Positions 12,357-55,850 of a DNA stretch of 64,000 nucleotides are shown piece by piece. The stretch is from Escherichia virus TH57. The stretch lies in the sequence record MT446422.1, one strand, 5' to 3'. Under the pieces are notes generated by a model. The model was not told the DNA's origin, ran no database searches, and was given only the letters and a program-made list of their open reading frames with translations. Made by a program: the position numbers and the translations under genes. The first letter of the stretch is position 1, and the number at the start of each line of letters is the position of its first letter.

Positions 12357-12590
12357 ATGTTAAACTTAATTACAAATGACAGAGTTACACAGGCATATGG
12401 TGACAGAAATGATGGAATCTATGTCTACAAGGGAGACCGCCGGATTGGTTTCATTACTGACCTGAAGGCCAAATTGTTAAAAGAATTGAAAGCCCAAACA
12501 AGTGATTCTGGGTTTAGAGCAAGAGCCAAAAAGAAAGATGAGCGCCTGGGTGCCAACTCTTTTGGTCCTAGAGGTTACAACCGCTACTAA
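12357..12590 (+). CDS. hypothetical protein, stand-alone paralog of the N-terminal domain of the following alc-like gene
   Basis: 77 aa from Met 12 (SD GAGGA); YGDRNDGIYVYKGDRRIGFITDLKAKL parallels YGDRHDGIYVYKGTKKIGLMTDLRKKL in 12604..13107. Confidence 0.4.
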   Translation: MLNLITNDRVTQAYGDRNDGIYVYKGDRRIGFITDLKAKLLKELKAQTSDSGFRARAKKKDERLGANSFGPRGYNRY

Positions 12591-12603
12591 TGAGGAAAAT
12601 ATT

Positions 12604-13107
12604 ATGGATATGCAACTGATTTCAAACGAAATGATTGTCAATGAATATGGTGACCGCCATGACGGAATTTATGTCTATAAAGGGACCAAGAAAATTGGTC
12701 TCATGACTGACCTGCGGAAAAAACTCGCCTCCAATAAAAAGTTGAAGGCGAAACAAAAAGAATATCGTGATAAAAAATCAGAAGAGCGGAAAGAAGCACT
12801 GCATGAATCTGTTCCTGAAATGGTTGACTTCTTAAAGAACCATTTGGTTAAATATGATGCAGAAGTGTTCATTAACCAGACCCAACCTAATGTACATATC
12901 AATGGATGTGTTTGTTATGTTGTGGTTGAACCCCTGACACTTCAACACCGCCTGGGGATTAAACACCCAGTGTTAACCCAGGATGATATGGCGGATGAAG
13001 TTGGTAATCAGTTCCGCATTTCAGCGTCTGACAGTACAAATCACATCCTCCTGAATGGTTTATCCCAGGATGATATTGTTGAGGTAATCATCAAGTTATG
13101 CAAATAA
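12604..13107 (+). CDS. alc: putative Alc (host-transcription inhibitor) homolog
   Basis: 167 aa, same length as T4 Alc by memory, and sits between rnlA and pseT as in T4; assignment by synteny and size only. Confidence 0.4.
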   Translation: MDMQLISNEMIVNEYGDRHDGIYVYKGTKKIGLMTDLRKKLASNKKLKAKQKEYRDKKSEERKEALHESVPEMVDFLKNHLVKYDAEVFINQTQPNVHINGCVCYVVVEPLTLQHRLGIKHPVLTQDDMADEVGNQFRISASDSTNHILLNGLSQDDIVEVIIKLCK

Positions 13108-22604: not shown

Positions 22605-22817
22605 ATGATTAATAAATTATTTAAAAAGCTGTTTGGCTTGGAAATGGTTGAAGTGACTTATCGTGTTATTGATTTATCACCGCCATATGCTTGCGATGAA
22701 GATGCTATTAAAACTGTTGTTATGCGAAAAACATATCGCGGGCGGTCAATTAAAGAAAGATTGCCAGACCATGGCATGTGGTATGCAACCAAGATTATCA
22801 GTGTCAAAGATGTCTGA
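22605..22817 (+). CDS. hypothetical 70-aa protein, tandem paralog B
   Basis: MINKLFKKLFGLEMVEVTYRVID...SIKERLPDHGMW...IISVKDV. Confidence 0.45.
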   Translation: MINKLFKKLFGLEMVEVTYRVIDLSPPYACDEDAIKTVVMRKTYRGRSIKERLPDHGMWYATKIISVKDV

Positions 22818-23268
22818 GTTAGAAATCAGAAGTAATTTTCCGTGGCCATCATGTGCATTAAGTAACTTTGCTAAATGGCCTTTTGTTATGGAGGGTATCC
22901 AGTTTGGAGGTCTTGAAGGCTTCCTACAAGGATGCAAGGTGAGAAATGTTGAACAACAAAAACGTATATTTGGGATGTCCGGATTGGCCGCCCAGCAAAG
23001 TGGAAGAGCTTATGCAAGAGCTGCGGACCGTGGGACGCTTTTCTGGTGTGGAATTCCCTTTTCAAGATACTCTACAGCATGGAAAGAGTTGTATACAAAT
23101 GCATATTTTGAAGCAGCGCTCCAAAACAGAGGGTTTCGCGATGCGTTACAATCCACAAAAGGCAAAGTTTTAAAGCATTCGATGGCAAGTCACCTTACTG
23201 TTCATGATACAATATTGACTGAACAAGAATTTATTGACATACTTAACCAATTGAGAGATGCATTATGA
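22810..23268 (+). CDS. NADAR-like (YbiA-like) domain protein, candidate ADP-ribose/N-glycoside hydrolase
   Basis: 152 aa from Met 50 of track ORF 22663..23268; LSNFAKWPF, EGFLQGCK and YFEAALQNRGFRDALQST resemble YbiA/NADAR blocks as recalled; start overlaps upstream stop. Confidence 0.45.
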   Translation: MSELEIRSNFPWPSCALSNFAKWPFVMEGIQFGGLEGFLQGCKVRNVEQQKRIFGMSGLAAQQSGRAYARAADRGTLFWCGIPFSRYSTAWKELYTNAYFEAALQNRGFRDALQSTKGKVLKHSMASHLTVHDTILTEQEFIDILNQLRDAL

Positions 23269-35677: not shown

Positions 35678-35702
35678 TGCTTTAATTTTATGGCTGTATA
35701 AT
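35678..35702 (+). promoter_or_regulatory. T4-type middle promoter for uvsY (MotA box TGCTTTA)
   Basis: AATGCTTTA, 12 nt, TATAAT, followed by conserved GGTTCTAGACCC; starts right after the gene 25 stop. Confidence 0.6.
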
Positions 35703-35730
35703 GGTTCTAGACCCTTACATTGGATACATT

Positions 35731-36165
35731 ATGAAAACAGAGATTGAATATAAGTTAGAAGTCTTTCAGGATGAGTTAGATGCAGATTTAAAAATTGATG
35801 GTACTCAACTTCAATATGAAACACAAAACAACGTTTTGTTGCATAGCAAATGGTTGAGATTGTATACCAACTGCAAGAAAGAAATAATGCGTCTTGAGAT
35901 TCAGAAGAAAACTGCACTGAAAAAACGGCTAGACCATTATACAGGAAGGGGTGACCCAGGGGAAGAAGTATGCATGGATGTATACGAGAAGTCAGAATTG
36001 AAAACAGTCATGGCCGCAGATTCAAACATACTGAAGATTGATACTTCAATTCAGTATTGGGCACTACTCCAGGACTTCTGTAGCGCTGCATTAGATGGTG
36101 TTAAGTCACGAAGTTTCGCACTTAAACATATGTTAGAAATAAGACAATTCGAGGCAGGCAAGTAA
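35731..36165 (+). CDS. uvsY: recombination mediator UvsY
   Basis: Start at Met 11 of track ORF 35701..36165; KKTALKKRLDHYTGRGD, VDTSIQYW, C-terminal IRQFEAGK match T4 UvsY. Confidence 0.9.
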   Translation: MKTEIEYKLEVFQDELDADLKIDGTQLQYETQNNVLLHSKWLRLYTNCKKEIMRLEIQKKTALKKRLDHYTGRGDPGEEVCMDVYEKSELKTVMAADSNILKIDTSIQYWALLQDFCSAALDGVKSRSFALKHMLEIRQFEAGK

Positions 36166-40992: not shown

Positions 40993-41018
40993 TGCTTCAA
41001 ATAAAAATGCGGTATAAT
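40993..41018 (+). promoter_or_regulatory. T4-type middle promoter (MotA box TGCTTCA) upstream of rnlB
   Basis: TTTGCTTCA, 13 nt, TATAAT, followed by conserved GGTTCTAGACCC. Confidence 0.55.
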
Positions 41019-41114
41019 GGTTCTAGACCCTTTGTGACTATTAATTCCTTTCAGAGAAAGAAAGTATAGTGGGTCTAATTTATAATGATATTTATAACAT
41101 CAAAGTGAGAGATT

Positions 41115-48283: not shown

Positions 48284-48543
48284 TATTCATCGTCCTCATC
48301 TTCATCTTCATCATCGTCGCCTTCGTCAGCGTCATCAGATTCTTTTTTGTCTTTCTTTTCTTCTTTGCCTTCGTCCTTGTTTTCATCTTCTTTAGGCTCT
48401 TCACCTTCAATCATGATGGAACGTGCAATTTCAATCTTACGTTCTTCAATCAAACTACCGCATACTGGGCCAATGTTTTCAGCAAAATATTTGCGAACGG
48501 CTACGAGGTCGTTTGATTTAATGGCTTCAAATAAATCATCCAT
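48283..48543 (-). CDS. 67: prohead core protein gp67 (acidic tail)
   Basis: 86 aa, C-terminal Asp/Glu run; synteny. Confidence 0.7.
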
Positions 48544-50117
48544 TAGAAATCCTCTTCTTCTTCTTCAGGGTTTTGGAAACGAGCCTCTTTGGACTCCAAT
48601 TCAATTTGCTTAGCTTCTTGATTAATTTCTTCATCAGACATCTGGAGGAAATCCTTCATAGCCGTTTGATGCGAAATATATTTACCGATAAACGGTTCAG
48701 CCATCGTTAGCATATTGATTCTGCGTTCCATGATTTCTGCGTCTTTCATTTCGGTGAAATAGCTATCACGGTTGAACGTAACTTTAATATTATTTAGTTC
48801 CTTTTCCCATTCCTCTTCTGAAATAATTTTTTTCAGGATAAGGTTGGTTTTAAGTGGGTCGAGGAAAACTTCTTCAAATTTATTCTGTAGCTGCCTAATC
48901 CATTTAGAGAAATTCAATTCATCGCGAGTAATTGTCGCGCCCGCATCAAACATAACACCACTGTTTTGGTCATTAGGGATACGAGATAATGGAATTCGGA
49001 GAGCTTGATATAGGTTGTTCTTAAACCAACGAACATCGTCCATATCCGACATGCCTTGTGCACCCGGGAGAGTGTCAACTTCGGTGACAGCTTTACCATC
49101 ACGACGTTGCAACCAATAGTCTTCTGTCATTGACATGTTGTGCTGTTGGTTTTTGATTTTACCCGTGGTTGCATCATATACGACACGGTTTTTCATCGTG
49201 TTCATAATATGTTGCATATGCGCTGCTGCTTTACGAGACGGCATATTCCCAGTATCGATATAAAAGACTCGGCGGTCTGGAGCACGAGTTATACGATAAA
49301 TGACTAAAGCATCTTCTAATAGTTTTAATTGGTTTGCAGGTTTAATTGCTCGTTGTAAGTATCCGATGATATTCTTGCCACAGCAATCAAGTAATCCAGA
49401 ATGCGCATATACAATCGCCGCACGAGGAATTTTTATTTTAGTACCTGCTTCATATATACGACCATCGGCACAATAACTTTCATGGCCAGTATCGTATACA
49501 AAATATTCTCTGTAACCGTCGACAATTTTTGTACCATTTTCCATGCGTGTAACGATTTCACGGATGAACTGGATTTGTCTTGGGTCGAGGCGACGAAGTT
49601 CTTGAACTCCATCTTTAAGTTTTGCTGGGTTGATAATTTTGTGGAAGAAAATTCGAGAATCCACATACCAACGTTTAAAGTGGTCAGAACCTTTACGCTC
49701 GAAATTAAGAAGGTTATTAACTTCCGCGAATTCTTCAAGGATTCGGTCTTTAATTTTCTGACTAAATTCGGTAGCATCAAGATTAAGAGCTACAACATCT
49801 TTACCGTCTTCAAAAACGATAGCATCAGACACAATTTCTTGCACCGCGTTATCAACTTCATAATTATTTAGTAAGTTGCGGTAGGTGTCAATTAATTCCC
49901 TGGTATTTTTTACTTCAGGTTCATTACTCCCGAACATCTGTTGCATCAATGCATTATACGGGACGTTTTGTTCTTGTGACTCAATTTCGCGAGCCCCATC
50001 GTCAAACTTCGGCCCGGTCATTGACTCTAAATTATTTTTTTCTTGTTGCTTATATTCTTGTTCATCTTCTTTAGCCCAAGGCTTAAGAAAATTTAGTATT
50101 GTGTTAAAACCTGCCAT
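48543..50117 (-). CDS. 20: portal vertex protein gp20
   Basis: 524 aa; same length and position as T4 gp20. Confidence 0.9.
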
Positions 50118-50164
50118 TAGAGTCTCCGAAGTTTGGGAAATGAGGCCGAAGCCTCATAATAACT

Positions 50165-50172
50165 TTATTTAT
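50165..50172 (-). promoter_or_regulatory. T4 late promoter (TATAAATA) for gene 20
   Basis: Minus-strand TATAAATA ~48 nt upstream of the gene 20 ATG, with GAGGCTTCGGCCTC hairpin in the leader. Confidence 0.45.
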
Positions 50173-50174
50173 AC

Positions 50175-50666
50175 TTATTCCCACCAGTCAATTGCGAACG
50201 TAGTTTCGAATGTCTCAATCTCATTATTCGAATCCCAATCCATCTGGACTTCACCAACGTTAGTTGGCCACATGCCGGTGATAACAACTTCTTTCGTAAC
50301 GGTCTTGCCATCACGATGGAACTGGCGAACAGTAGCGGTTTTCTTATAATCAGCAGGAGCTGCACCGGTAATTTCGTTGGTCATACCGTGACACATATTT
50401 TGCCAATCAACAATTGCTTGACGAACTTTATGGGCATCGTCGTTATAAATCGTAATAGTCCAGTCATCAAATGTACGGTCTCCCGCAACGTTGATTTTAC
50501 GGTTCATGTAACCAACTGGTACTTTTTCTACAATGCCTGCTGGCATCGGTGCAGCTTTGCAATGGAAAGCAAAGTTTTTACCCAGGAATGGGATTTCGAC
50601 TTCGAACAGGTTAGGGCGAGCAAAGTCACCGGATTCGAAAGCGCGTGTGATATCGGTCAACTCCAT
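50175..50666 (-). CDS. 19: tail tube protein gp19
   Basis: Start at Met 18 (MELTDITRAFESGDFARPNLF); close match to T4 gp19. Confidence 0.9.
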   Translation of the reverse strand: MELTDITRAFESGDFARPNLFEVEIPFLGKNFAFHCKAAPMPAGIVEKVPVGYMNRKINVAGDRTFDDWTITIYNDDAHKVRQAIVDWQNMCHGMTNEITGAAPADYKKTATVRQFHRDGKTVTKEVVITGMWPTNVGEVQMDWDSNNEIETFETTFAIDWWE

Positions 50667-50718
50667 TAAGGAATCCTCTTTATAGACACAGGTCGCACGT
50701 ACGCGTCCCTGGTGCATG

Positions 50719-50726
50719 TATTTATA
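50719..50726 (-). promoter_or_regulatory. T4 late promoter (TATAAATA) for gene 19
   Basis: Minus-strand TATAAATA ~55 nt upstream of the chosen gene 19 start. Confidence 0.45.
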
Positions 50727-50801
50727 CTAGGTAATATGATTCATCAATAAATGTATTTAGGTCGCTGGGGGAGCTCTGAGGAGTCCGTAGAACCGATGAT
50801 A

Positions 50802-50827
50802 TGCTTTTATTTATAGCATTGTATAAT
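50802..50827 (+). promoter_or_regulatory. Middle-promoter-like element on the plus strand (antisense to the HNH gene); also reads as a minus-strand late promoter
   Basis: ATGCTTTT, 13 nt, TATAAT, then GGTTCTACGG resembling the conserved element; the same bases contain TATAAATA on the minus strand (50808-50815). Confidence 0.35.
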
Positions 50828-50861
50828 GGTTCTACGGTTTACTGCTTAATTACATTTACTG

Positions 50862-51467
50862 TCAGGATAATATATCCCATAAGTCAATACTATTTGATTT
50901 TCCTTTGGACCTATTAGATTCCCAAGTGACTATTTCTAAATTGTTGAGCGAAGCGATAACAGTCTCTGGTATATGATTATAAAATCCATACGCAATAGAA
51001 ACTTTATGGTCAAGTTGGTATGCACCTTCTTCCCCACATTTTCCTATCTTATCTGCATTTTCCCATGTTGACCAAATATTCTTTAGATGTTTTGCTCTTG
51101 TCAATGCATGAACACGTTGAGCGTACAAATAGAATTCACGCTTATTGCCTTTCCAGCTATGATGTTTTTCACCACGTTGCCATGGTCTTGGCACACCGCC
51201 TTGTGCAATAACATTCTTTTGTCCAATATCTTTTCTTGAACACGCCTTACATAAATGTTTATCAACGCGACGAAGCAACTGAATCCCTCGCTCAAAATGT
51301 ATCCCACATTCATCACAGGAACACTCAATCTTTTTATTACTATTATCTGGCATTTGTTCAACTGGAACAGAAATCACATCATGGTATGTTAGAGGTTTAC
51401 CTAAGTATTCGCTCCACCACTTTGCATGATTTCGTATTTGAACTTCAACAAATTTAGAAATAATCAC
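50862..51467 (-). CDS. HNH endonuclease-like protein with N-terminal Cys cluster
   Basis: 201 aa; zinc-finger-like CSCDECG ... CKACSRK; C-terminal HNH motif QLDHKVSIAYGF ... NLEIVTWESNRSKG; between genes 18 and 19. Confidence 0.6.
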   Translation of the reverse strand: MIISKFVEVQIRNHAKWWSEYLGKPLTYHDVISVPVEQMPDNSNKKIECSCDECGIHFERGIQLLRRVDKHLCKACSRKDIGQKNVIAQGGVPRPWQRGEKHHSWKGNKREFYLYAQRVHALTRAKHLKNIWSTWENADKIGKCGEEGAYQLDHKVSIAYGFYNHIPETVIASLNNLEIVTWESNRSKGKSNSIDLWDILS

Positions 51468-51534
51468 TTGTAAATCCTTGCGCGTATTTATATCATACGC
51501 GCATTATAACCCAAGTTAAATCAGAAGTAAAGTC

Positions 51535-53514
51535 TTATTGCACCCCAATCAGCTCATCAAAATCTGCACCAGTGCTAGTGGCTACGAAATTAAGCTGTAT
51601 ATAGTTAATACTGCGAGCGGGTTTATAATAAATGCTAGCAACAAACTCATTTCGGTCAATAACCGATGGGGTGTTGTTAGTAGTATCACAAACCACACGA
51701 CCTTCATAAATGCCACCGAGTGCACGAATACCATCCAAGTATTGAGAAGTTTCCATACGGAATGATGCACGAGTGAAGTTATCGTTAAGCTCAAACAGTT
51801 TATATTTGGATGCGTCACCGATATTTTTCTTCAGCATATTCGTAAGACGACGAACGTTAATATGGTCCATCGGAGATGGAACTTTAGTTGCAGTCTTATC
51901 ACCGTACAGAACAAAACCATCGCCACCTGCGAAACCAACAACCGGGTTGATAGCTTCCTGATACATACGGTCACGTTGGGTCTGACGTGGTTCGATTGCC
52001 AATTTCAGAACGTTCAGAATCTGACCACGGTTATAACCGGCTGGAGACATCCAAGGCTGAGAAATATCATCAGTACGAGCACACAGACCAGCCATATCAG
52101 CTGCCAGAGGAACCCAACGGTTCACGTCGTTATATTTATCATACTGATATTTATAGTTGCCATCAATGGCAGCATAAGTCGTGCTGATATTCATGTTATC
52201 AGTATCGAATGCACCGCTACCTGTACGCCAATCAATCAGGTTATCCACTGCACGGGTCAGAGGAACATTAACCAACAGGCCTTTCGGCGGGGAGATAAAT
52301 GCCAGGCAATCCTGACGTTCGTCAGCGATAGAAACTACGTGCTTCTGAACAGTGGAAGCAGTCGCATCACCTTCACCAGCTACTGCGCCAGCGATAAGCA
52401 GGTTAATATGCAGTGCTTCACGGTCAGCAAACAGGTCCCAACCTTGCATCAAATCACCAGCAGTAACCTGGTCGTTTGCAGAAATACCGCCCATCAGATT
52501 GATGATGCCTGCAAAGCCTTTTGGCCAGTTCAGAGAAGTCGCATAGATGTAATTGGAAGTACCTTTTGCAAAGTAGTCGTCCAGATAAATGTTGTTGCCG
52601 TAAACGTCTTTATCGCCTTCTTTAGTTGACAGAACAACGTTTTCAACGATAGCACCATCACGACGAACGATGATTGCATACTGGTCGTCAGACTGTGGTC
52701 CGTAGTTAAACACCGCACGAGCTACAGAAGCACGGGAACCGCCGCCTGGATAAATATCCAGCATCTTCGAAGCGCCAGCATCATAAGCAGCTTTGGAAAC
52801 GATTTCAACTTCGAGAGTCGAGCCGATTTCACCAGGATAAAGAGCAACAACACCTGGCATTGCATATTTCTGTAGGGAAGCCTGGAATTCCAGAGAGGTA
52901 ATAGCTTCTTCACTATTTTCCGCTTCGGTCAACAGGATACCAGAATCGGTAACAATTTTCCCGAGGGTAATCGTACCAGACACACCTGAAGAAGTGGTTA
53001 GGATTTCAGCAGTCCAAGCCGGGCCTAAAGCAGGATACTGGTTTACAGATTTTGCAAAGGCAATAATTTTGTCAGACGGAATGAAGACCGCAAGGATTTT
53101 CCCGTCAACGTCAACCTTGGTGATACGGCCAGCAGTTTCAACAACAGTCTGGTTGTGTTTAACCTGGATAACGTCACCGACTGCATAGTTAGAACCTGCA
53201 GTAGCGATTGTACTTTCGATGTTCCCTGCTACCGGGGATGCGTTTTTAGCAAATTCACGGTTAACAACACGAACGGTGCGCAGGTCATTACCATATTGAA
53301 GGAAATTCATTCCACTCATAAAGTAGTCAGCCGTAATATTGTTCGGGCCACCAAACAAATCGACAAGTTCCACTTCGTTTGTAATTTGAGTTACCTGGAA
53401 AGCTGGGCCCCACTGGAATTTACCAACCAGCGCCGCACGACCCGTCGCGTTACGAACAACAGTGCTTTGGACCGTTGTTTCTTTGAGCTCAATGCCCGGG
53501 GATAATAAAGCCAT
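51535..53514 (-). CDS. 18: tail sheath protein gp18
   Basis: 659 aa; close match to T4 gp18 over its whole length. Confidence 0.95.
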   Translation of the reverse strand: MALLSPGIELKETTVQSTVVRNATGRAALVGKFQWGPAFQVTQITNEVELVDLFGGPNNITADYFMSGMNFLQYGNDLRTVRVVNREFAKNASPVAGNIESTIATAGSNYAVGDVIQVKHNQTVVETAGRITKVDVDGKILAVFIPSDKIIAFAKSVNQYPALGPAWTAEILTTSSGVSGTITLGKIVTDSGILLTEAENSEEAITSLEFQASLQKYAMPGVVALYPGEIGSTLEVEIVSKAAYDAGASKMLDIYPGGGSRASVARAVFNYGPQSDDQYAIIVRRDGAIVENVVLSTKEGDKDVYGNNIYLDDYFAKGTSNYIYATSLNWPKGFAGIINLMGGISANDQVTAGDLMQGWDLFADREALHINLLIAGAVAGEGDATASTVQKHVVSIADERQDCLAFISPPKGLLVNVPLTRAVDNLIDWRTGSGAFDTDNMNISTTYAAIDGNYKYQYDKYNDVNRWVPLAADMAGLCARTDDISQPWMSPAGYNRGQILNVLKLAIEPRQTQRDRMYQEAINPVVGFAGGDGFVLYGDKTATKVPSPMDHINVRRLTNMLKKNIGDASKYKLFELNDNFTRASFRMETSQYLDGIRALGGIYEGRVVCDTTNNTPSVIDRNEFVASIYYKPARSINYIQLNFVATSTGADFDELIGVQ

Positions 53515-53543: not shown

Positions 53544-55850
<2,307 letters not shown>

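Follow-up and report, generated by a model that had tools for sequence, protein, structure and literature searches.

The 64,000-nucleotide stretch of Escherichia virus TH57 analysed here (sequence record MT446422.1), hereafter the window, shares 97.5% identity with the T4-like Gaprivervirus vB_EcoM_VR7, an Escherichia phage. The interval of interest lies between the tail sheath gene, 18, and the tail tube gene, 19, where a 201-amino-acid open reading frame (ORF) is encoded on the minus strand, which is the late-gene strand in this region, and a middle-promoter-like element on the opposite strand points into it. An earlier note, made from the letters alone, had read the ORF as an HNH endonuclease and the element either as antisense control of a potentially toxic nuclease or as a promoter brought in with a mobile cassette. 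Our analysis favours, with a probability of about 0.7, a different account of the pairing, namely that a homing-type HNH gene was inserted beside a resident orphan middle promoter, and that antisense RNA over the nuclease gene is incidental. The features of the interval are as follows.

50175-50666, minus strand: gene 19, tail tube protein, 163 amino acids (Pfam PF06841; length and position as in the VR7 gp19 annotation)
50719-50726, minus strand: proximal late-promoter motif TATAAATA for gene 19, invariant in seven of seven Gaprivervirus sequences
50749-50782: patch of about 35 bp, wholly different in alignments of HNH-carrying and HNH-less Gapriverviruses
50787-50796 and 50828-50837: 10-bp inverted repeat, CCGTAGAACC / GGTTCTACGG, enclosing the element
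50799-50834, plus strand: MotA-type middle-promoter-like element, with box, spacer, TATAAT, GGTTCT and predicted start A50834
50808-50815, minus strand: distal late-promoter motif TATAAATA, overlapping the spacer of the plus-strand element and invariant in the genus
50862-51467, minus strand: gene of the ORF19.1 family, 201 amino acids, GTG start, between gp18 and gp19
51475-51502, minus strand: leader of the HNH cassette, a hairpin GCGCGTA...TACGCGC (51480-51502) abutting AAGGA (51475-51479)
51535-53514, minus strand: gene 18, tail sheath protein, 659 amino acids (Pfam sheath domains; VR7 annotation)

With gp18 and gp19 identified by Pfam and no coding sequence annotated in the corresponding interval of T4, the ORF does lie between tail sheath and tail tube genes where T4 has none, as the earlier note had stated. 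Its AAGGA ribosome-binding site is 8 nt upstream of the GTG, and in VR7 it is labelled 'gp19.1 hypothetical protein, similar to T6 gp19.1'. The protein is 59% identical over 200 amino acids to T6 ORF19.1, matches PHROG 5104, a family of unknown function, over residues 1-200 (E 6e-77), and has weak PHROG matches to 'endonuclease VII' (E 9e-4) and 'homing endonuclease'. Homologues were found by tblastn in 235 phage records; the family, which was first seen in phage T6 and has been known since 1994, is widespread.

The HNH (beta-beta-alpha-metal) motif was taken to consist of a catalytic His, usually after Asp or His, followed by Asn and then by Asn or His, in a beta-beta-alpha element, and the ORF presents D153-H154...N176...N185 in this arrangement. 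These residues are invariant in 21-24 homologues at 33-64% identity, and an alignment of 24 homologues contains an invariant block, YQLDHK.S..YGF...NL....W..NR.K, as well as four invariant or nearly invariant cysteines, Cys51/54/73/76 (CxxC...CxxC). In the AlphaFold model of the protein (predicted local distance difference test, pLDDT, 83.7), strands at 150-154 and 177-181 and a helix at 182-188 are placed at the motif, and the top Foldseek matches of the model are Cas9 HNH domains, which are weak (E 0.17-0.9). A Pfam search with the 201-amino-acid protein gave no match at E <= 1, NCBIfam and PDB sequence profiles gave no HNH assignment, and the curated profiles returned weak zinc-finger matches alone (DUF4379 treble clef, mS66, L31). 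Among the 24 family members, Pfam HNH_4 was matched by one (E 0.078) and the DUF4379 treble-clef zinc finger weakly by eight. The assignment of the ORF as a predicted HNH-type nuclease is supported by the motif and by weak fold evidence from the model, not by curated profiles. Of the architecture first described, an N-terminal Cys cluster followed by a C-terminal HNH motif, the length and the motif stand; the cluster, at residues 51-76, is not at the extreme N-terminus. Two other 201-amino-acid ORFs with GTG starts, at 12502-13107 and 22663-23268 on the plus strand, were considered as paralogues and rejected as unrelated (BLASTP E 5.3 and 0.07), their shared length being a coincidence.

The distribution of the gene among relatives is patchy, in keeping with the mobile appearance suggested for it before. 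Its Gaprivervirus carriers are VR7, RZ, DK-13 and DCP80 alone, and about 25 other records are without it. In alignments, carriers and non-carriers are separated by a clean indel of about 665 bp, in which the insertion begins immediately behind the stop codon of gene 18 and reaches to within about 30 bp of the inverted repeat, so that the indel boundary falls between the gene 18 stop codon and the promoter-like element. The same presence/absence pattern is repeated in Dhakavirus and across the Tevenvirinae. Furthermore, in VR26 a 33%-identical HNH paralogue is found beyond the element, immediately 5' of gene 19. It belongs to a second HNH lineage, 31-35% identical, which in Gaprivervirus as in Dhakavirus is inserted between the element and gene 19 (loci L003, that is VR26, 1071-1754, and L033, 814-1461) and in VR26 displaces the proximal late promoter region. 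In our survey of the 18-19 regions of 79 T4-like loci, Dhakavirus showed both Gaprivervirus configurations, one in L032/QL01 and the other in L033, and more carriers were scattered in other lineages. The same conserved element is thus flanked by two related selfish-gene lineages. A presence/absence polymorphism at one locus, with clean boundaries and in an intergenic position between conserved genes, is the mark of a free-standing homing gene, and the distribution of the ORF, as read from the genomes, matches what an endonuclease gene of this type would show.

The carriers also differ from non-carriers beyond the insertion itself. All of them share a flank haplotype to about 50749, which comprises a 2-bp indel, single-nucleotide polymorphisms and the 35-bp patch at 50749-50782, which has the inverted repeat on one side and the proximal late promoter of gene 19 on the other. 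Over 50775-50850 the HNH-carrying records are 100% identical, and HNH-less records align only from 50779, at 88-93%. The patch may be a co-conversion tract or a tract of the donor haplotype. The Dhakavirus pair QL01/IME341 has no such flank patch. At the end of gene 18, DCP80 has the HNH-less type of sequence, and the ending ...GVQ* as opposed to ...GPQ*, which had been considered as an immunity signature of HNH carriers, was rejected, as the correlation is broken by this phage.

The DCP80 record has other peculiarities. Its allele of the ORF (locus L004, PQ671644, 1727-2377) is a mosaic, near-identical in DNA to the window at both ends and resembling a 58%-identical relative (P0007) in the middle, and the record contains a run of N as well as unrelated ORFs at the place where gene 19 is expected, which points to an assembly problem or a rearrangement.

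The second subject of this work is the element that faces the ORF. The consensus for T4 middle promoters is a MotA box, (a/t)3TGCTTtA, centred near -30 and separated by 12 +/- 1 bp from TAtaaT (PMC2988021). In the window, ATATGCTTTT at 50799-50808 fits the box at 9 of 10 positions, with the final A replaced by T, and is followed by a 13-bp spacer, within the permitted range, and a perfect TATAAT at 50822-50827. T4 PuvsY reads TGCTTCA-N12-GTATAATGAATCTAAG, and because its mapped start is an A 7 nt after TATAAT, the start of the element is predicted by analogy to be A50834. The 3' end of the ORF is 28 nt away, and the predicted transcript would be fully complementary to the ORF. The opposed MotA-box/-10 element described earlier was thus recovered on the plus strand, pointing into the ORF, and the same bases do read as a minus-strand late motif, TATAAATA at 50808-50815. 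A generic promoter scan missed the element because the scan requires a -35 hexamer. The element faces away from gene 19, and no plus-strand ORF follows downstream.

The sequence downstream of the -10, which had been described as conserved, connects the element with other promoters of the phage. The window contains three exact copies of the 14-mer GTATAATGGTTCTA, all of them on the plus strand, and 7 matches with up to 2 mismatches, as compared with 0.56 expected. The two further exact copies belong to the following sites.

35678-35709, plus strand: sister promoter 5' of uvsY, orthologue of T4 PuvsY / oriF, with the 14-mer at 35696 (Pfam UvsY on 35734-36162)
40993-41025, plus strand: sister promoter 5' of rnlB (RNA ligase 2), positional counterpart of T4 PrnlB, with the 14-mer at 41012

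The identity of rnlB was confirmed by Pfam RNA_ligase and T4_Rnl2_C matches, and T4 PuvsY and PrnlB are experimentally mapped middle promoters (T4 promoter table). In the complete genome of TH15 (MT446392), an HNH-less Gaprivervirus, the pattern [TC]GCTT-N13-15-TATAATGG was found 9 times as compared with 0.03 expected, and TATAATGGTTCT 6 times as compared with about 0 expected. The motif of the family can be written as (T/C)GCTTnn, N11-13, TATAATGGTTCTAGACC(C/T)TT. The sites of the family in TH15 (L013-L016) include 23217+, 42789+, 130344+, 103728- and 165126-. One member of the family lies inside gene 34 in antisense orientation, and its T4 orthologue is P34i/oriG. Two others, 103728-, between genes 3 and 2, and 165126-, by dda/mod-like genes, are orphans that are oriented against local genes, with no ORF downstream. 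Ordinary gene promoters, those of rnlB and of a 137-amino-acid ORF, also belong to the family. A MotA homologue is encoded in TH15 (34% identity over 207 amino acids, E 5e-28), motA being outside the window. Judged by its sequence, the 18-19 element is a bona fide member of the phage's own 'TATAATGGTTCTA' middle-promoter family. A degenerate copy, GTATAGTGGGTCTA, was also noticed at 41064-41077 on the plus strand, 52 bp downstream of the rnlB promoter-like site and followed by TATAAT; it may be a tandem promoter.

The presence of the element among relatives does not follow that of the ORF. The 76 bp around it are found as a single copy per genome in 33 of 33 Gaprivervirus records, with or without the ORF, and the HNH-less phages VR25, VR20, SP18, TH15, phage 212 and UPEC07 have it at the same place. 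In seven aligned Gaprivervirus genomes, the box, TATTTATA, TATAAT and GGTTCTACGG are invariant, as is GGTTCTA after the -10, and the variable sites are those of the spacer. In six Dhakavirus loci, aCGCTGTA-N13-GTATAATGGTTTTAGGT, with the core GTATAATGGTT, occupies the equivalent place and reads in the same direction; two of these loci contain an HNH gene, one on each side of the element, and four do not. In contrast, the element is absent from the 67 other T4-like 18-19 regions of the survey, which include the ORF19.1 carriers T6, Klebsiella phage Roth78 and loci L027, L046, L054 and L057, with T4- and Acinetobacter-phage types among them. The 18-19 gaps without the ORF are 24-180 bp in these 67 loci as compared with 185-204 bp in Gaprivervirus and Dhakavirus. 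Among carriers of the HNH gene, the element is kept in those of Gaprivervirus and in QL01, and it is absent in carriers outside the two genera. Since the element is present in HNH-less genomes and absent from other carriers, the promoter is neither an import of the cassette nor a family-wide regulator of the nuclease.

Import of the promoter as part of the mobile HNH cassette, one of the two explanations first offered, is in our view hardly credible, as every HNH-less member of the genus, and the sister genus too, has the same element at the same position, the edge of the indel falls between the stop codon of gene 18 and the element, and T6-type cassettes have no such element. What speaks for it is the HNH-carrier haplotype, which runs through the element to about 50749, so that this allele was probably co-inherited with the gene. 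The other explanation, in which a potentially toxic HNH nuclease is restrained by the opposed middle promoter as its dedicated antisense regulator, is very unlikely as well. The full complementarity of the transcript predicted from A50834 would suit such a regulator, the element is kept in the close ORF-carrying relatives VR7, RZ, DK-13, DCP80 and QL01, and promoter placement near homing endonuclease genes can yield antisense transcripts (PMC2988022). However, about 25 genomes of Gaprivervirus and 4 of Dhakavirus that lack the ORF have kept the element equally well, and there it points into gene 18; the paralogous HNH gene of VR26 and L033 is behind the promoter, which points away from it; and the T6, Roth78 and other ORF19.1 carriers named above do without the element. 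Furthermore, middle promoters precede the late transcripts that bear the ORF (PMC3016281), from which it would follow that the antisense RNA is made ahead of its target.

If the translation of the nuclease is restrained, a more suitable candidate is found in the leader of the cassette. The leader hairpin has a fold of -14.9 kcal/mol (z = -4.25), with the ribosome-binding site at the foot of the stem, and a copy of TATAAATA at 51485-51492 lies in its loop and 3' arm. QL01, Roth78 and T6 likewise combine a hairpin directly 5' of the ribosome-binding site with a GTG start; QL01 keeps the hairpin without TATAAATA, and the hairpins of Roth78 and T6 differ in sequence and have the same position. A leader hairpin adjoining the ribosome-binding site was thus found in four divergent family members and, together with the GTG, is the single putative damping feature common to the whole family, which also argues against the antisense promoter in that role. 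T4 homing endonucleases are regulated by RNA hairpins (reviewed in PMC2988022), and the leader of the ORF resembles this translational regulation. This suggests that the family-wide translational damping of the nuclease would be due to the leader hairpin and GTG start rather than to the antisense promoter.

The inverted repeat that encloses the element raises a further alternative. The late-strand RNA of the repeat region folds at -19.2 kcal/mol (z = -6.35), and of 2000 random positions, 3 were enclosed by a repeat of 10 bp or more. Because the predicted plus-strand start is inside or upstream of the right arm, formation of the hairpin is limited to read-through RNA of the late strand and to single-stranded DNA. 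In Dhakavirus the same core is surrounded, at different distances, by another repeat of 8-10 bp, ATCCCAGG(CT) / (AG)CCTGGGAT, and the other promoters of the family have no enclosing repeat. In T4 and T6 a small hairpin follows gene 18 and precedes the late promoters of gene 19, and in the simplest reading the repeat would be the counterpart of this hairpin, with the antisense promoter in its loop.

It could therefore be argued that the element is conserved for late-strand roles only, as a late promoter of gene 19 and as a hairpin that ends or stabilises the gene 18 mRNA, and that the MotA box and -10 are a relic or due to chance. The invariance of TATAAATA inside the element and the strength of the fold are consistent with this, as are the simpler arrangement of T4 and T6, with a hairpin and then TATAAATA at the same place, and the retention of an enclosing repeat with different arms in both genera, which fits a role at the RNA level. 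Yet TATAAATA is all that a T4-type late promoter needs, and nevertheless it is the spacer that varies, with the box, TATAAT and GGTTCTA invariant. Dhakavirus keeps the -10/GGTT core although no TATAAATA overlaps the element there, and in VR26, where the distal TATAAATA is upstream of the paralogous HNH gene and gene 19, the left arm of the repeat is lost while the promoter core is kept. The identity over 14 nt with two promoters that precede plus-strand genes is also far beyond chance. For these reasons we regard a purely late-strand explanation as unlikely.

Another alternative gives the orphan promoter a function of its own, as the priming promoter of a lineage-specific origin of the oriF/oriG type, in which an R-loop would form in AT-rich DNA downstream and the RNA would prime the leading strand. 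T4 oriF and oriG each consist of a MotA-dependent promoter and an AT-rich unwinding element (PMC3016281), which is the combination that such an origin would share, and oriG is inside late gene 34, where its RNA runs opposite to gene 34 and primes replication by way of an R-loop. The extended motif of the 18-19 element places it in one family with the orthologues of the two origin promoters, a kinship that makes an origin role conceivable. The element has no ORF downstream and is followed by 50 nt (+1 to +50) with 68% A+T as compared with a genome mean of 60% (standard deviation 7%). This enrichment, however, only equals the 90th percentile of the genome, and downstream A+T failed to separate origin-type from ordinary family members, of which the family holds at least the rnlB promoter and that of the 137-amino-acid ORF. 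There is no strand switch or other origin signature at the site, and T4 has neither an origin nor a middle promoter here. We regard an origin at this place as improbable.

Anti-late RNA has been described in the older T4 literature. A literature search on it returned nothing usable. We put forward, as a tentative and rather improbable idea, that the hairpin-enclosed promoter is a functional, lineage-specific element of Gaprivervirus and Dhakavirus, either an additional R-loop origin of the oriG type within the block of tail genes or a source of programmed anti-late RNA against the sheath gene, and a landmark at which two HNH lineages inserted, one on each side.

We return to the reading that was given the highest probability, the insertion of a homing-type HNH gene beside a resident orphan middle promoter. 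The ORF would be a free-standing homing-endonuclease-like gene of the T6 ORF19.1 family, with a zinc-finger region followed by a C-terminal HNH motif. The mobile unit would comprise the leader hairpin, ribosome-binding site, GTG and ORF, placed right after the gene 18 stop. The ORF would be transcribed late by read-through from gene 18 and, in this phage, probably also from its own TATAAATA, and its translation is probably held low by the hairpin at the ribosome-binding site and by the GTG. The element is a resident of the 18-19 region in both Gaprivervirus and Dhakavirus, and in Gaprivervirus it overlaps a late promoter of gene 19. When the HNH gene landed just downstream of the promoter, a middle transcript that formerly ran into the end of gene 18 would have come to traverse the nuclease gene in antisense orientation. 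Such a transcript across the HNH gene may arise incidentally, and the pairing of promoter and gene results from where the insertion took place and is no control circuit. What the sequences show directly is the homology of the ORF, its patchy distribution and insertion boundaries, and the conservation and statistics of the motifs; nuclease activity, homing, promoter activity and a role for the transcript are inferred.

Several observations weigh against this reading. The MotA box ends in T and not in A, the Dhakavirus box, CGCTGTA, is further off the consensus, the MotA of the genus is just 34% identical to that of T4, and promoter activity is deduced from sequence alone. The conservation within Gaprivervirus could equally be explained by the overlapping late promoter and hairpin. 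This allele of the element probably travelled with the gene, as the haplotype differs through and beyond the element. In addition, a literature search found no cleavage or homing experiment for any ORF19.1 member, and ORF19.1 is unmentioned in the homing-endonuclease papers PMC2988022 and PMC10055350.

The closest known counterpart of the gene is T6 ORF19.1, which has the same locus between genes 18 and 19, the same length of 201 amino acids, a GTG start, a hairpin just upstream of the ribosome-binding site, and the same invariant Cys and DH...N...N residues in addition to the 59% identity. It differs in its leader hairpin, which is GGGGCTTCGGCCCC, and in the lack of an opposed MotA-type element, the intergenic region downstream being of the ordinary T4 type. 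The ORF is also similar to the free-standing HNH homing endonucleases of T4 (the Mob family and I-TevIII), which are intergenic between conserved essential genes, sporadic among relatives, equipped with an HNH-type motif and a zinc finger, and embedded in the host transcription programme (PMC2988022). In contrast to the Mob type, the domain order is reversed, the zinc finger here preceding the C-terminal HNH-like motif (PMC10055350), and the ORF, a predicted nuclease, matches no Pfam HNH model. It is reasonable to rename the 'gp19.1 hypothetical protein' of VR7-like phages as a putative homing endonuclease of HNH type, belonging to the T6 ORF19.1 family.

The promoter, for its part, resembles T4 P34i (oriG/ori34) and PuvsY (oriF) in its MotA box, TATAAT and G-rich discriminator. 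It shares with P34i the character of an orphan middle promoter antisense to a late structural gene, and with the PuvsY orthologue of the window 14 exact nucleotides. The locus is different, T4 having nothing comparable at 18/19, and the 18-19 element is enclosed by a repeat and overlaps a late promoter, while other family members are unenclosed. A likeness also exists to the promoter-stem-loop cassettes of T4-like phages, PeSL and PmSL, reportedly described by Arbiol (2010) and Comeau (2014), in that a conserved promoter motif and a stem-loop are found at an indel boundary between close relatives. PmSLs use a TGCTT Mot box, and in PeSLs the stem-loop is upstream of the promoter, which is followed by a ribosome-binding site and start codon (PMC4122927). 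The element was rejected as a cassette of this kind, as its repeat encloses the promoter, no plus-strand gene follows, and the flanking 76 bp are single-copy.

The promoter type and antisense orphan middle promoters such as oriG are already known. This orphan promoter at 18/19, conserved in two genera and enclosed by a repeat, appears to be undescribed, as does the tight family of TATAATGGTTCTA promoters, and our literature search found no paper on either. The family of MotA box and TATAATGGTTCTA includes the counterparts of T4 origin promoters as well as several orphans oriented against local genes. If the orphans fire, they would be a simple handle on two old T4 questions, the purpose of anti-late RNA and what makes a middle promoter an origin. 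The locus is also a warning that a striking pairing of a nuclease gene and an opposed promoter can be an accident of the landing site of a selfish gene.

Some minor observations concern the surroundings of the interval. Reading of the sequence places the true start of gene 19 at the ATG at 50666, with AAAGAGGA ahead of it. An Rfam scan of 50000-52000 gave no match at E <= 1, and the single terminator-like site found by the generic promoter/terminator scan, at 50703-50715, is weak. In UPEC07 (locus L010), a 44-amino-acid plus-strand 'hypothetical protein' is annotated across the promoter-like element, at 184-318, and is almost certainly a spurious call. The gene beyond gene 19 is the following.

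48543-50117, minus strand: gp20

Across the whole window, TATAAATA occurs 19 times as compared with 4.3 expected; 15 of the 19 copies are on the minus strand, mostly just 5' of late genes, for example at 53544-53551 ahead of gene 18 and at 50166-50173 ahead of gene 20.

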